64,000 bases of DNA from a virus. The stretch covers positions 1 to 64,000 of IMG/VR virus record IMGVR_UViG_3300005805_000049; one strand, written 5' to 3'. Under the pieces are notes generated by a model. That model made no database searches. It saw nothing but the letters and a program-made list of their open reading frames with translations, and had not been told where the DNA came from. Both the position numbers and the translations under genes were made by a program. Within the stretch, counting starts at the first letter, position 1. Each line of letters begins with the position of its first letter. Below, one piece after another: positions 23,690 through 45,638 of the stretch.

Positions 23690-23815
23690 ATGCTAACTCT
23701 GTTAGTAGGAATGGCAATTGGCCTGGTAATTGGTTGGAATTTACTTCCCCAACCAGTTTGGGTCAAAGCAAAGTATGACAAACTGGTCGATTGGGTCAAA
23801 CAAACAACTGGCTGA
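23690..23815 (+). CDS. 41-aa membrane peptide (not in ORF track)
   Basis: AGGAG RBS; MLTLLVGMAIGLVIGWNLLPQPVWVK... Confidence 0.6.
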   Translation: MLTLLVGMAIGLVIGWNLLPQPVWVKAKYDKLVDWVKQTTG

Positions 23816-23839
23816 TCAGTTTGACAAACACAAAAAAGT

Positions 23840-23869
23840 AAACTGGGGAGAAATTTTCCCCAGTTTTTT
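23840..23869 (+). terminator. Rho-independent terminator
   Basis: AAACTGGGGA-loop-TCCCCAGTTT followed by T-tract. Confidence 0.85.
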
Positions 23870-23873
23870 ATTA

Positions 23874-23881
23874 TATAAATA
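23874..23881 (+). promoter_or_regulatory. T4-type late promoter TATAAATA
   Basis: Exact consensus, intergenic, upstream of gp13. Confidence 0.85.
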
Positions 23882-38554: not shown

Positions 38555-39898
38555 ATGTTATCAGAACAACTAGTTGCAAAGTGGAAGCCAATTCTTGAGC
38601 ATGAAGAACTTTCACCAATTAAAGATCTTCATCGCCGTAATGTAACTGCAGCACTTCTCGAGAACACAGAAAAAGCTCTACGTGAAAACGCTGCTTACTC
38701 TTCACAGTTCCTAGTTGAAACACCAGTCAATGCGATGGGTGCTTCTTCTTCAACTGCAAGCGATGGCTCCATTGACATCTTCGATCCAGTTCTAATTTCT
38801 CTGGTTCGTCGTTCAATGCCAAACCTTATTGCGTATGACATCTGCGGCGTTCAGCCAATGACCGGTCCAACAGGACTAATCTTCGCAATGCGCGCCCGTT
38901 ATGCTAACCAAACTGGCACAGAAACCTTCTATCAAGAAGTTAACACTGCATTCTCTTCAGTCGTTACCGGTGCTAACACACTTGGTCAGAAGCACGTTGG
39001 TGATACACCAGGCAACACAACTGTAACAGCTAACCTTGCTGAAACCGGTCTATACAACTTTGGTTCCGGCATGTCAACAGCTCAAGCTGAAGCTCTTGGC
39101 GATGCTTCAAACGTTGCTTTTGCTCAAATGGCTTTCTCAATCGAGAAGGTTCCAGTAACTGCAAAGTCACGTGCTCTAAAAGCTGAGTACACGATGGAAC
39201 TCGCTCAGGACCTTAAAGCATCTCATGGTCTTGACGCTGAAACCGAACTATCTAACATTCTTTCTAGCGAAATTCTCGCAGAAATCAACCGTGAAGTAGT
39301 TCGTACAATCTACGTAACAGCTCAAAAAGGTGCAACAACCGGCACAACCACAGCTGGTATTTTCGATCTTGATACAGACTCAAACGGCCGCTGGTCAGTT
39401 GAAAAGTTCAAGGGCCTAATGTTCCAAATCGAACGTGAAGCTAACAAGATTGCCAAAGACACCCGTAGAGGTAAGGGTAACGTAATCATCTGCTCTTCAG
39501 ATGTTGCTTCTGCTCTACAAATGGCTGGCATTCTCGATTATGCTCCAGCTCTAAATTCAAATCAGCTAAACGTCGACGATACTGGCAATACATTTGCTGG
39601 TGTTCTCAACGGTCGTATGCGCGTTTACATCGATCCATATGCAACCGGTTCTAACTACATGGTAGTTGGTTATAAGGGTCCTGGTCCATTCGATGCTGGT
39701 CTATTCTACTGCCCATACGTTCCACTACAAATGGTTCGTGCAGTCGATCAGGATTCATTCCATCCAAAGATCGGGTTTAAGACTCGTTATGGCATGGTTG
39801 CAAATCCATTCGCTGAAGGTTCAACAGCTGGTGCTGGTGCTCTAACAAAAGACTCTAACGTATACTACCGCAGAGTGCTTGTTACAAACCTCATGTAA
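38555..39898 (+). CDS. gp23: Major capsid protein gp23
   Basis: PVLISLVRR..PNLIAYDICGVQPMTGPTGLIFAMR, KSRALKAEYTMELAQDLKA.HGLDAE.EL, GFKTRYG. Confidence 0.98.
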   Translation: MLSEQLVAKWKPILEHEELSPIKDLHRRNVTAALLENTEKALRENAAYSSQFLVETPVNAMGASSSTASDGSIDIFDPVLISLVRRSMPNLIAYDICGVQPMTGPTGLIFAMRARYANQTGTETFYQEVNTAFSSVVTGANTLGQKHVGDTPGNTTVTANLAETGLYNFGSGMSTAQAEALGDASNVAFAQMAFSIEKVPVTAKSRALKAEYTMELAQDLKASHGLDAETELSNILSSEILAEINREVVRTIYVTAQKGATTGTTTAGIFDLDTDSNGRWSVEKFKGLMFQIEREANKIAKDTRRGKGNVIICSSDVASALQMAGILDYAPALNSNQLNVDDTGNTFAGVLNGRMRVYIDPYATGSNYMVVGYKGPGPFDAGLFYCPYVPLQMVRAVDQDSFHPKIGFKTRYGMVANPFAEGSTAGAGALTKDSNVYYRRVLVTNLM

Positions 39899-39920
39899 GG
39901 TTTGTCAAATAACCAACTAG

Positions 39921-39948
39921 AAAGAGGGGCAGTTGCCCCTCTTTTTTT
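39921..39948 (+). terminator. Rho-independent terminator after gp23 (probably bidirectional)
   Basis: AAAGAGGGGC-AGTT-GCCCCTCTTT plus T-tract. Confidence 0.9.
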
Positions 39949-39995
39949 ATGCCAACAGCCATTTAGGAGCATCACGTTTGGTATACTTTATTACC

Positions 39996-40283
39996 TCAAA
40001 CGAGATGCTTGTTCTTGTAAGCATGGACGAGTGCACGTTCAGCTTCATCCTCAACGTTGTTGCGATATATCAACCGTCCATTATAGACCTTTGCAAAAAG
40101 CCGACCTCTTTCATATGCCCACGCTTCTTTGCAACCTGCAATATCGTAATTGAAAGGCTTGTTGGTCAACACGGAATTATATCCCAGCTGAAACCAGCCG
40201 TTTCTGATGATTTGCTTGTAAGTCGTCTTGACAACACGAGTATTTCCCGACTGATACGCCTTGCTCTTGCGAGTGTTAGCCAT
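39996..40283 (-). CDS. Basic hypothetical protein, the only credible minus-strand gene
   Basis: 95 aa; AAAGGA RBS and its own sigma70-like promoter on the minus strand. Confidence 0.7.
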   Translation of the reverse strand: MANTRKSKAYQSGNTRVVKTTYKQIIRNGWFQLGYNSVLTNKPFNYDIAGCKEAWAYERGRLFAKVYNGRLIYRNNVEDEAERALVHAYKNKHLV

Positions 40284-40312
40284 GTCGAAGTCCTTTCGAT
40301 TGCTTCAAAGGC

Positions 40313-40340
40313 AACATACACCAATAGTTGAACAGGTCAA
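40313..40340 (-). promoter_or_regulatory. Sigma70-like promoter TTGACC-N16-TATGTT
   Basis: Reverse complement TTGACCTGTTCAACTATTGGTGTATGTT, upstream of the minus-strand ORF. Confidence 0.65.
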
Positions 40341-40371
40341 CAGCTAAATTTGCTAGATGATAAATAATAAA

Positions 40372-40476
40372 TGAGAGATAAGGTGTTGCGTACTCTCAAC
40401 CAAATCCTCTGAATAACGAGAATTAAAAAAACACCAACAGAGGATATCTAAGGGAGCTTTTCAGCTCCCTTTTTTT
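40372..40476 (+). ncRNA. Candidate structured small RNA (two hairpins with loop-loop pairing, then terminator)
   Basis: GATAAATA late-type promoter at 40359; stems TGAGAG/CTCTCA and ATCCTCTG/CAGAGGAT; loops GGTGTT and AACACC are complementary. Confidence 0.5.
40450..40476 (+). terminator. Rho-independent terminator
   Basis: AAGGGAGCT-TTTC-AGCTCCCTT plus T-tract. Confidence 0.85.
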
Positions 40477-40512
40477 GTTTTGATAAATACTATCATTTCA
40501 AGGAGATTTGCA

Positions 40513-40902
40513 ATGGCAAGACCTAAAGGCTCACCAAATAAAAACAAATTACAGCTCTCTCCAGACAAACAACTGTCTCCTGATCATGTTGCTGAAGTAA
40601 AACAAAAAGCTAAGGCCGCTCAATCGAAGAGAAAGCCTCGGAAAACAGAAACGGAAAAGATCGAAAATGCGTTAGATACGATCCGTAAAATGATGGGACA
40701 AAAAAGAGCAAAGGCTGCTGTAAAACCATCTGATAATTATGATGTTGGTTACAAATTTGCTGAACCTTTAGCGGGAAAGAGAAAAACTGCAGCTGAACTG
40801 GCAAAGATCGCATTGGAAAAGGATCCTTCACGCGACAGATCGATTGAAACGACTGAAACTTATGCTAAAGCTAGACTAAAAAGAGTAAAAGGGTCACAAT
40901 AA
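40513..40902 (+). CDS. Basic protein with AT-hook-like RPKGSPNK motif
   Basis: AGGAG RBS, ATG 40513, GATAAATA at 40482; Lys/Arg-rich. Confidence 0.65.
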   Translation: MARPKGSPNKNKLQLSPDKQLSPDHVAEVKQKAKAAQSKRKPRKTETEKIENALDTIRKMMGQKRAKAAVKPSDNYDVGYKFAEPLAGKRKTAAELAKIALEKDPSRDRSIETTETYAKARLKRVKGSQ

Positions 40903-42183
40903 ATGTTATCGTTTAAGCAATACATTCTAGAACAACAGATTATCCTTGAAGATAGGATATCTTTTATCAAAAAGCAGTTTCCTGGCAATGAACACGTTGT
41001 CGACTTTTTTGCTACAAATGCAGATCCGACACCAAACAAAATCCACACACAGTGGATTATGAATCAGTATAAAAAAGGCAATATTAAACACGAAGACCAC
41101 GAACGAGTTCGAAATGCATTGGAACATTTTGGTAATCCAGCAGTAAAGAGACAATTAAAGGCTGCTGGACACCCAACTGATGTTAATCAGCATAGTTTAT
41201 CTAGCCTAGAATCGGCTATTGCTCCCCACATTGGTGCAAAATCACGCAAGCAACAACAAAAAGAAATTAAAGTTGAAGGTGCTGATTTAGTTCACAACGA
41301 CAAGCAATTAGGGGTTACTGTCCATCACATAAAGACTGAACAGGCTTCTTGTGCGTATGGTGCGAACACAAAATGGTGCACGTCCGGAGAAAAAGACAAT
41401 CAGTTTAAACGTCATGATAAATTGGGCCCTGTTTATGTTGTTCAACATCAAGGAAAGAAATACCAGTTCCACACTGCTACTGCTCAGTTAAAAGACGAAC
41501 AAAACCAAGATGTTTCGTTCAAGGATTTGCACCCAGACATTGCAAAATCATTGGGACAATCGACACATTCAGAAATTGCAAAAGCAAATGTTATGTTTGG
41601 CAATCCTCATGCGGCAGCCGATCACTTGACAAAAGCATTATCGGATAGCGACTCGTTGCTTCGTCAAAAGGCAATCCAACACCCAAATGTTACAGCGGAG
41701 CACATAACAAAGGCTCTAAATGACGATAATTGGAAAGTTCGAGAAGCTGCTATTAAACATCCAAACGCAACGTCAGAACACGTAAGCAAGGCATTAAACG
41801 ATACAGATGCTAAAGTGGTTAAAGCAGCAATTCAACACCCAAAAATGAGTGCAGAACATATTACAACAGCTCTTGAAACTGGAGAATCTCTTACACGACA
41901 TACCGTAATGCAGCACCCAGCAGCTACTGCTGAACATATAACAAAAGCTCTAGCAGATAGAAACTCTAGTGTTCGTGTTATAGCTCTCAGACACCCAAAC
42001 GTCAATATACAACATTTAGAAGTTGCTTCAAAAAGCAATGACCCCTCACTACGTGCTGCAGCGATGTATCATCCAAAAGCAACGATGGAGCAACTAAAAG
42101 TCGGATTAAAAGATCCTGATCCAGTTGTTTCAGATGCTGCATATACAGCACATAAAAGAAAAATAGCAGCAGGAGAAAAGTAA
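40903..42183 (+). CDS. Putative internal virion protein with C-terminal HEAT-like repeats
   Basis: MLSFKQYILE leader; central YG..TKWCT...YQFH domain; ~25-aa EHITKAL.D....VR..AI.HPN repeats. Confidence 0.7.
   Translation: MLSFKQYILEQQIILEDRISFIKKQFPGNEHVVDFFATNADPTPNKIHTQWIMNQYKKGNIKHEDHERVRNALEHFGNPAVKRQLKAAGHPTDVNQHSLSSLESAIAPHIGAKSRKQQQKEIKVEGADLVHNDKQLGVTVHHIKTEQASCAYGANTKWCTSGEKDNQFKRHDKLGPVYVVQHQGKKYQFHTATAQLKDEQNQDVSFKDLHPDIAKSLGQSTHSEIAKANVMFGNPHAAADHLTKALSDSDSLLRQKAIQHPNVTAEHITKALNDDNWKVREAAIKHPNATSEHVSKALNDTDAKVVKAAIQHPKMSAEHITTALETGESLTRHTVMQHPAATAEHITKALADRNSSVRVIALRHPNVNIQHLEVASKSNDPSLRAAAMYHPKATMEQLKVGLKDPDPVVSDAAYTAHKRKIAAGEK
41600..42150 (+). repeat. About seven tandem 25-aa HEAT-like repeats
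   Basis: H(I/L/V)(T/S)KAL.D...R..A..HP recurs with 75-nt period. Boundaries approximate. Confidence 0.8.
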
Positions 42184-45113: not shown

Positions 45114-45638
45114 ATGGCCAGTAAAAATTATGTCAATAATGCGACTTTGCTACAACATCTGAAAGTTTACCTAGAGCAGTTGCGTGAAGCAAAACAACAG
45201 CAGTTGCCAGAACCTAAAATTCCCGAATACATTGGCAGTTGTATTTTATTGATCGCAACCCGTCTTGCCAACAAGCCTAATTTTGCGGGGTATTCGTTCA
45301 AGGAAGAAATGATCAGTGATGGAATCGAAAACAGTTTAATGTACCTTCACAATTTCAACCCCGACAAATCTAGCAACCCATTTGCATACTTTACTCAAAT
45401 CATTAAATTTGCGTTCATTCGAAGAATACAGAAGGAAAAAAAGCAACACTATATAAAGGTCAAGAATCTTGAGAATCTTGCTTTTGAGGACATGATTGAG
45501 AATAATGAGCTGAAGCCAGTTGAAGTTAATGAAATAACTCAATCGTTTGTCGATGATTATGAAAGCAAGTTGACAACCAAGAAAAAACCTGCTATATTAG
45601 CAAATACTGTTAGTAAATTCTTCGTAGAGGTAAAATAA
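45114..45638 (+). CDS. gp55: Late transcription sigma factor gp55
   Basis: NYVNN, KPNF.GY....EMISDGIEN, NPFAYFTQI...AF.RRI.KEKKQ. Confidence 0.95.
   Translation: MASKNYVNNATLLQHLKVYLEQLREAKQQQLPEPKIPEYIGSCILLIATRLANKPNFAGYSFKEEMISDGIENSLMYLHNFNPDKSSNPFAYFTQIIKFAFIRRIQKEKKQHYIKVKNLENLAFEDMIENNELKPVEVNEITQSFVDDYESKLTTKKKPAILANTVSKFFVEVK

Follow-up and report, generated by a model that had tools for sequence, protein, structure and literature searches.

The stretch of DNA analysed here (the window) is the first 64 kb (64,000 nucleotides) of a 126-kb IMG/VR virus record that is estimated to be 74% complete. The record is T4-like by gene content: genes for a prohead protease (36814), a scaffold protein (37500) and the major capsid protein gp23 (38555-39898) are present, with those for a gp3-like tail protein (42183), UvsY (42757) and UvsW (43212) lying 3′ of gp23, and at 45114 lies a gene for a gp55-like late sigma factor (phrog_234, E 1.6e-54). 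The phage comes from a lake and is uncultured. A short unit without a credible gene, located in the gap that separates gp23 from the gp3-like gene, had been proposed from its letters to encode a functional structured RNA. The unit and its surroundings contain the following features:

38555-39898: gp23, the major capsid protein gene, with its own terminator (T1) downstream
39922-39950, + strand: T1, the terminator ending gp23; 9-bp GC-rich stem, 4-nt loop, run of seven T
39996-40283, − strand: orf95, an accessory gene with a Shine-Dalgarno sequence before its ATG and with known homologues
40313-40340, − strand: candidate sigma-70-type promoter of orf95; TTGACC, 16 nt, TATGTT, matching at 9/12 positions
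40359-40366, + strand: late-type promoter box GATAAATA, retained by every variant contig, even where the left flank differs
40372-40398, + strand: stem-loop 1; 6 bp, 15-nt loop containing GGTGTT; predicted 5′ end of the RNA
40404-40445, + strand: stem-loop 2; 8 bp, 26-nt A-rich loop containing AACACC; pre-terminator hairpin
40450-40481, + strand: T2, an intrinsic terminator; 9-bp stem (40450-40471), 4-nt loop, T7GT4
40482-40489, + strand: late promoter GATAAATA for orf129, whose ATG (40513) follows after 24 nt; Shine-Dalgarno sequence AAGGAG at 40500-40505
40513-42183, + strand: orf129 and the gene for a 426-aa HEAT-repeat protein, accessory genes of the same variable block, upstream of the gp3-like gene (42183)

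All of the features that the original prediction had listed are correctly placed, and every letter it quoted was found in position. In stem 1, TGAGAG (40372-77) pairs with CTCTCA (40393-98), and in stem 2, ATCCTCTG (40404-11) pairs with CAGAGGAT (40438-45). Likewise, GGTGTT in loop 1 (40382-87) is, as claimed, the exact complement of AACACC in loop 2 (40430-35). Along the unit, stem-loop 1 (6 bp) is separated by 5 nt from stem-loop 2 (8 bp, with a 26-nt A-rich loop), and 4 nt further on come an AAGGGAG terminator, a T-run and GATAAATA. Its description as an ORF-free and self-contained unit that runs from a late-type box to a strong terminator also holds, the sole ORF being one of 13 codons that lacks a Shine-Dalgarno sequence. 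T2 was rightly called strong; 5 of the pairs in its 9-bp stem, which has a 4-nt loop, are G-C and the U-tract (T7GT4) follows directly after the hairpin, as is characteristic of intrinsic terminators. Only 8 strong + strand terminators were counted in the 126-kb record, and because they are rare, the placement of a late box 90 nt upstream of one is not trivial. What had been left out of the description were T1 and orf95, which lie between gp23 and the unit; the unit is back to back with the orf95 promoter and not behind gp23.

Indeed, orf95 is a real minus-strand gene, located between gp23 with its T1 terminator on one side and the unit on the other. T1, which probably also serves orf95 from the opposite side, aligns with the gp23 3′ UTRs of two related loci (L016 and L021) up to the T-run, beyond which the window diverges. 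Homologues of orf95 include P0004, at 58% identity, and an ORF in locus L001, at 39-44% identity. The gene had no Pfam or PHROG match, and in the Atlas it was grouped with virus-only clusters. Within IMG/VR its family was found in distant loci only (L001, L083, L084 and L085, at 33-39%), and no member was found in genome contigs. In L001 the homologue is co-directional and sits behind other ORFs, and no comparable unit is present there. For the candidate orf95 promoter, the surrounding region contained 5 matches to the sigma-70-type consensus against 4.2 expected, a comparison that counts the consensus match alone. On the other side of the unit, orf129 and the HEAT-repeat protein had no relative in IMG/VR, and homologues of them were present in 0/81 loci.

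The promoter box of the unit matches the T4-type late consensus TATAAATA at 7/8 positions, and is to that extent a T4-type late promoter box. Its identification in the original prediction as late-type is well founded, and it is of a kind that this phage uses: ATAAATA occurs 30-53 nt before 10 gene starts in the window. There, the motif was found 22 times against 18.4 expected, which is no overall enrichment, and 20 of these 22 occurrences are on the + strand. The form of the box that begins with G also precedes orf129, and in L007, L009, L010, L014 and L043 it precedes the gp3-like gene. In fact, the 12-mer at 40358-69 is identical at 11/12 positions to the 12-mer of the orf129 promoter at 40481-92, so that a direct repeat brackets the unit. 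T4 late promoters are described in PMC2988020 as consisting of an 8-bp TATA-type box whose distance from the start is about one helical turn, with AT-rich DNA after it and no −35 element. At the 50 T4 sites covered by that description, base 1 of the box is T at 32 and A at nine, and most of the others have other single deviations (PMC2988020). The box of the unit resembles the promoters so described in its 8-bp TATA-type form, its AT-rich downstream region and its lack of a −35 element, and the phage encodes a gp55-like sigma factor; it differs from them in that its first base is G, whereas T is commonest in T4. Because the T4 late box, as described there, sits about one helical turn upstream of the start, transcription from the box is predicted to begin near 40372, at the foot of stem 1. 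Judging from these letters, the late polymerase would fire at this box.

Folding of 40366-40480 with RNAfold gave exactly three hairpins at −30.4 kcal/mol (z −3.71), and none of 200 shuffles folded as well. When the terminator was left out, the + strand of the core (40372-40449) had a z of −2.94, with 7 of 1000 dinucleotide shuffles as good (p 0.007). The minus strand of the core was not unusual (z −1.32); the stems are perfect palindromes and hence foldable on either strand. The bulk of this fold signal comes from stem 2 (z −4.6), while stem 1 alone is not unusual (z −1.3). As for the pairing between the loops, a complement of at least 6 Watson-Crick pairs appeared in 6.2% of 20,000 shuffled-loop trials, or in 18% when G-U pairs were counted, and the energy of the loop-loop duplex was matched in 1.5% of 5,000 shuffle trials. 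The pseudoknot is thus only mildly unusual (p 0.06 by length, 0.015 by energy), and these values apply to a match that was chosen among many intergenic regions, the gene list of the window including nine gaps longer than 140 nt. In L031, the closest look-alike among the relatives, hairpin 1 has a 4-nt loop and the kissing contact cannot form, so that the pairing has no counterpart there. We think that the complementarity of the loops is due to chance.

To place the unit among known RNAs, the window was compared with the covariance models of Rfam 15, and at gathering thresholds there were 0 matches across its 64 kb, in keeping with the original prediction, in which no family had been recognised. 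With E values of up to 10 allowed, 40250-40560 gave 13 matches, all far below gathering, of which the best was to STnc50 (24.8 bits against a gathering threshold of 55) and fell on the terminator. ARAGORN found no tRNA or tmRNA in the window. Searches for relatives of the DNA itself were similarly negative. There was no DNA match when 39900-40950 was compared with phage records by blastn, and at word size 7 the T2-plus-promoter part alone of 40284-40512 was matched among the 81 loci, in L043, L031 and L060. The exact 27-mer of stem-loop 1 was absent from IMG/VR and from genome contigs, and a stems-only pattern with N in the loops was absent from IMG/VR. A single-sequence covariance model of the unit found one copy in the 126-kb record, the unit itself; against 48 related virus records (a set without L084 and L085) its best E values were 0.80 and 0.81, which we treated as chance, and the L031 record received no score. 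Homologues that might show covariation, which the original prediction had suggested collecting, were thus not found beyond strains that are 92-99% identical, in collections that may omit records very near that of the window. With no homologue beyond these near-identical strains, no covariation was found either.

Potential targets of the loops were sought in the phage itself, across 236 candidate regions of translation start. With loop 1 the best duplex reached −15.1 kcal/mol and with loop 2 −13.8 kcal/mol, and shuffled loops reached equal target duplexes in 85% (loop 1) and 80% (loop 2) of 40 trials. Seed complementarity above chance was thus not found among these phage start regions. A decoy of the toxin-antitoxin kind (a ToxI-like, type III mimic) was also considered and rejected, there being no tandem repeat in 39900-40560 and the neighbouring gene being on the opposite strand.

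To examine the position of the unit in related phages, we used the 80 best IMG/VR loci by gp23, which share 66-90% protein identity. In the 55 relatives that contain both gp23 and the gp3-like gene, the gap between the two is at most 160 nt in 35, 161-400 nt in 2 and more than 400 nt in 18, with a maximum of 3.8 kb; the gap in the window is 2284 nt. Long gaps are filled by unrelated genes, for example a 526-aa ORF and a GIY-YIG-like ORF in L003 and a 148-aa ORF in L004, and none of the three genes in the gap of the window recurs in the gp23-selected loci. The region between gp23 and the gp3-like gene is therefore an insertion hot-spot, or hyperplastic site.

Where the gap is short, its layout consists of the stop codon, a small hairpin, 3-9 nt, a GC-rich terminator, a T-run, NATAAATA, a Shine-Dalgarno sequence and an ATG. 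The generality of this arrangement was assessed in the 65 relatives with enough DNA downstream of gp23. A terminator lies within 260 nt after gp23 in 65/65, and ATAAATA follows within 40 nt beyond that terminator in 36/65. In 31/65 the spacer preceding the terminator is more stably folded than 95% of shuffles, and a hairpin of at least 5 bp ends no more than 9 nt from the terminator in 46/65, with loops of at least 12 nt in 13 of these 46, several of them A-rich. A hairpin, a terminator and a late promoter thus form a generic cassette after gp23 in this clade. Because relatives carry the same order after gp23, stem 2, T2 and the second promoter can be read as this cassette, and they lose the weight given to them in the original prediction as evidence of a special RNA.

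This point is illustrated by L031, in which the gp23 stop is directly followed by an 8-bp hairpin with a 4-nt loop, 5 nt, and a 7-bp hairpin with a 23-nt A-rich loop, and then by 4 nt, an AAGGGAG terminator, a T-run and ATAAATA; the two hairpins and the terminator form the gp23 3′ UTR. T2 and its promoter are 83% identical to L043 over 48 nt and 78% identical to L031 over 64 nt. Upstream of T2 the likeness between the unit and L031 is mainly architectural, sequence identity being low. More generally, the unit shares with the gp23 3′ UTRs of L031, L043, L050 and L053 a hairpin or pair of hairpins, in which the hairpin nearest the terminator has a long A-rich loop, followed by 3-5 nt and an AAGGGAG-type terminator, and after the terminator a T-run, NATAAATA and the Shine-Dalgarno sequence of the next gene. 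It differs from them in that theirs directly follow the gp23 stop and have no promoter box of their own, whereas the unit is separated from gp23 by T1 and orf95 and has a late box in front. We also observed that, over 18 nt, the T-run region of the terminator shows 72% complementarity with the A-tract of loop 2. The long loops of L031, L015, L050 and L053 are likewise A-rich, and such complementarity might bear on what these 3′ UTRs do.

Variation among strains provided a second view of the unit. At least part of the stretch is contained in 20 of the 22 listed sequencing runs, none of which is recorded as an RNA run, and we compared the contigs of four runs from four studies, leaving aside the parts that they do not cover. 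The unit was present in 4/4 of these runs. By hand count, there are 8 variable sites in the 83 nt of the unit core (40367-40449), 9 in the 97 nt of the T1 spacer, 9 in the 288 nt of orf95 and 2 in the 75 nt of the orf95 promoter region; the unit drifts at the pace of the neighbouring spacer. None of the 8 sites falls in the 27 nt of stem-loop 1, all being in the other 56 nt of the core, where two lie in the linker, two in the 5′ leader and two in loop 2. At the terminal pair of stem 2, a G-U pair is kept by the change 40404 A>G (X4), and the pairing is broken by 40445 T>C, found in a single X6 contig of depth 3.4. This contig also carries 40432 C>T, which retains a G-U pair within the kissing helix. 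Changes at paired positions thus include 2 that preserve a wobble, 1 that breaks a pair and 0 that are compensatory, and paired positions account for 3/8 variable sites against about 3.9 expected (hand count). The conservation expected of a trans-acting small RNA was not seen, there being 0 double changes among strain variants whose divergence is too small to decide the matter.

The same contigs revealed where the locus comes apart. Homology to the window breaks at 40358, 40360 and 40364, inside the promoter box, in both directions, and further loose ends occur at 39996-98 and 40508. Because contigs break inside the box, the unit and orf95 are separable modules joined at the late-promoter box. 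In X4, two variant paths have depths of about 12-13 and the window-like path has a depth of 6, as would be expected if, in the majority genotype, orf95 and the unit were separated by an insert of 400 nt or more. On both sides this insert (40360-40364) is bordered by an identical 5-letter piece of the box, and a T at its right end completes the box to the full T4 consensus. In all, the ATAAATA box is kept with three different left flanks.

Two kinds of known element invite comparison with the unit. Enterobacterial small RNAs derived from 3′ UTRs, such as DapZ and MicL, are transcribed from promoters of their own, located within the upstream gene or immediately beyond it, and small RNAs of this type have conserved seed regions, known targets and a dependence on Hfq. 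The putative RNA of the unit would be like them in being short, in sharing the terminator of an mRNA 3′ end and in having its promoter at the end of an upstream unit; it would differ in that the conserved seed, the known targets and the Hfq dependence are theirs. The other kind is the PeSL of T4-type phages, described as an early promoter with a stem-loop that lies between modules in hyperplastic regions (PMC2839356, PMC4122927). According to the second of these descriptions, PeSLs are located at indel points between close genomes and are well-conserved repeats within a genome (PMC4122927). The unit similarly lies at an indel boundary between close relatives, and it resembles the PeSLs so described in combining a stem-loop and a promoter within a hyperplastic region, with breaks in the box and a 12-nt promoter repeat. 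In contrast, its promoters are late where those described for PeSLs are early, and the + strand after T2 has no sigma-70-like site. Furthermore, PeSLs are described as repeated, whereas the 126-kb record contains the T2-promoter sequence just once: a blastn-short search of 40440-40512 against this record gave nothing beyond 12-nt chance matches. Only the architecture of a terminator and then a box recurs there (terminator 23840, box 23875).

How might such a unit have arisen? We give about an even chance to its being an orphan late transcription unit left behind by module shuffling, probably transcribed and without a dedicated role. By this account, recycled regulatory parts would have been assembled in the hypervariable stretch that separates gp23 from the gp3-like tail gene. 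The 3′ two-thirds of the unit (stem-loop 2, the spacer, T2, the T-run, and the promoter and Shine-Dalgarno sequence of the next gene) would correspond to the cassette found at the gp23 3′ end of relatives, isolated here from gp23 by T1 and by orf95, which lies on the minus strand with its promoter, and a near-copy (11/12) of the late-promoter box of the next gene would have been placed before this cassette. Polymerase carrying the gp55-like sigma factor would start about 6 nt past the box, near 40372, and transcription would stop at T2, yielding a non-coding RNA of about 105 nt that begins with stem-loop 1. That an RNA of about 105 nt is made seems to us somewhat probable from the signals in the DNA. 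We think that the unit, rather than being a dedicated regulator, is a by-product: a 3′ UTR that has been orphaned and carries a stray promoter. Counted in favour of this were the variable gap, the generic cassette, the layout of L031, the alignment of T1 and the 12-nt repeat, together with the breakpoints in the box, the lack of a homologue, the dense and non-compensatory variants and the lack of a target for the loops.

The observations counted against a by-product are for the most part those that speak for a functional late small RNA, a molecule of about 105 nt whose two hairpins are locked by 6-bp kissing and which acts in trans. The promoter box is of a type in use and the terminator is strong, strong terminators being rare in the record; the fold signal is specific to the + strand (p 0.007), and the kissing duplex energy is reached in 1.5% of shuffles. 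In addition, stem-loop 1 is invariant and the changes at 40404 and 40432 keep G-U pairs, all four runs, drawn from four studies, contain the unit, and its box is kept when the left flank changes, with three left flanks in total. That the likeness to L031 is mainly architectural was also counted on this side. We nevertheless find such a function doubtful. No homologue appeared in the 81 loci, the 48 related virus records, IMG/VR or the genome contigs, drift equals that of the neighbouring spacer with no compensatory pair, and a low-depth variant breaks the terminal pair of stem 2. Moreover, two of the three helices are generic 3′-UTR parts, the kissing contact is precluded in the L031 look-alike, no target stood out among the phage start regions, and the kissing match has a p of 0.06 by length after many intergenic regions were screened. 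What stands of the claim of a functional structured RNA is thus an ORF-free unit from promoter to terminator with no Rfam match; stem 2, T2 and the second promoter are not evidence for a special RNA. A more specific version, which we consider unlikely, is that of a true late small RNA gene in which a capsid-gene 3′ UTR has been captured under its own late promoter and is docked by GGTGTT/AACACC. Such a gene would provide a compact, nuclease-resistant RNA late in infection that might, for example, bind a host RNA-binding protein or transcript, and, if true, it would represent a phage case of 3′-UTR-to-sRNA evolution at the strain level.

Other explanations assign the sequence to the neighbouring genes. 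That it is a minus-strand regulatory region, acting as promoter, operator or 5′ leader of orf95 or of the extra gene in X4, is suggested by the divergent orientation of orf95, which starts 76 nt from the box, by palindromic stems that fold on either strand, and by the ends of the X4 insert, which look coding up to the junctions and fit one minus-strand ORF abutting the unit (30-letter ends). This we judge improbable: a closer promoter candidate for orf95 is found at 40340-40313, and orf95 in the X4 variant retains the flank 40284-40364 alone, so the unit is not needed. On the minus strand the fold is unremarkable (z −1.3) and no Shine-Dalgarno sequence adjoins the junction, and the orientation of the insert was judged by eye from 60 letters. 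If the unit were a leader or attenuator for orf129 and the HEAT-repeat gene, T2 would be read through conditionally and the hairpins would decide termination. Such a role would match the succession of promoter, structured leader, terminator and gene, and the complementarity of the loop 2 A-tract to the T-run region could be viewed in the same way. It is, however, very improbable, because a second late promoter directly after T2 makes read-through unnecessary and because the same pair of terminator and promoter in relatives simply separates two units; no riboswitch or leader was matched in Rfam even at E up to 10, and no antiterminator pairing with the 5′ arm of T2 was seen by eye. Finally, the ATG at 40371, which coincides with the predicted transcription start, could open a 13-residue peptide frame ending at the TGA of 40410-12 on a leaderless or near-leaderless late mRNA. 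We rejected this micro-ORF as scarcely credible: it has no Shine-Dalgarno sequence, no conserved ORF of the kind was found anywhere, and 3/3 of its variable sites (40401, 40402 and 40404) change an amino acid.

If the unit is indeed a by-product of module shuffling, there are consequences for how uncultured T4-like phages are annotated: units of promoter, hairpin and terminator in the variable gap after gp23 can arise from module exchange at terminator/late-promoter cassettes, and they should not be called small RNA genes unless conservation or transcripts attest to them. The layout of hairpin (often with an A-rich loop), terminator and late promoter after gp23 would then be a regular feature of this clade, and may influence how stable the most abundant late mRNA is. 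Should the RNA instead prove functional, the unit would be an example of a regulatory RNA born from a displaced 3′ UTR, which would be of moderate interest to phage RNA biology.

Among the relatives' loci collected via gp23, the major capsid gene, a small hairpin just 5′ of the terminator proved to be a regular element of this clade's gp23 3′ UTR, as judged over the first 25-90 nt past gp23 in L003-L082. Its stems vary by lineage, for example ACCAG/CTGGT, TTCGG/CCGAA and ATTGGA/TCCAAT. GATAA, AATAA and long A-rich sequences are frequent as loops.

A second stretch running from a late-promoter box to a terminator was found in the viral record, outside the window:

G000:C1:67789-67953 (locus L089, 790-954): late-box-to-terminator stretch

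It begins with a full TATAAATA box, which overlaps the final codons of a 63-aa ORF, and continues with ~130 nt of non-coding sequence before a strong terminator that sits between convergent genes. Searches of this stretch found neither a tRNA nor a match in Rfam; its fold reached a z of only -1.85. Within the window, most of a 234-nt gap is taken up by a small ORF with a hydrophobic N-terminus, and this gap precedes a terminator at 23840 and a late box at 23875:

23691-23816, plus strand: 41-codon ORF, absent from the gene list, with a good Shine-Dalgarno sequence

Between gp23 and the ORF-free unit lies an accessory gene on the opposite strand:

39996-40283, minus strand: orf95, small accessory protein

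The orf95 protein carries an invariant W-x-YERGRLF motif and falls in virus-only clusters in the Atlas; it has no Pfam or PHROG family. In the Atlas structure search it showed a faint likeness (TM 0.41) to one cluster, 13% of whose members contain a ribosome modulation factor domain. In L003, the closest relative (gp23 90% identical), the same gap after gp23 is occupied by other genes:

L003 5380-7348: 526-aa ORF and 95-aa ORF

Judged by eye, the start of this 95-aa ORF appears GIY-YIG- or T5orf172-like.

The stop codon of orf95 falls within 39968-40009, a 13-nt inverted repeat that is 92% complementary. Read on the minus strand, orf95 thus also has a hairpin behind it, followed by T1, the gp23 terminator, in reverse. 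In sequencing run X4, one contig holds 525 additional letters between window positions 39990 and 39996, and contigs from X6, X10 and X13 part from the window immediately left of the orf95 stop codon. Together, these differences indicate that strains also vary in the segment separating T1 from orf95.
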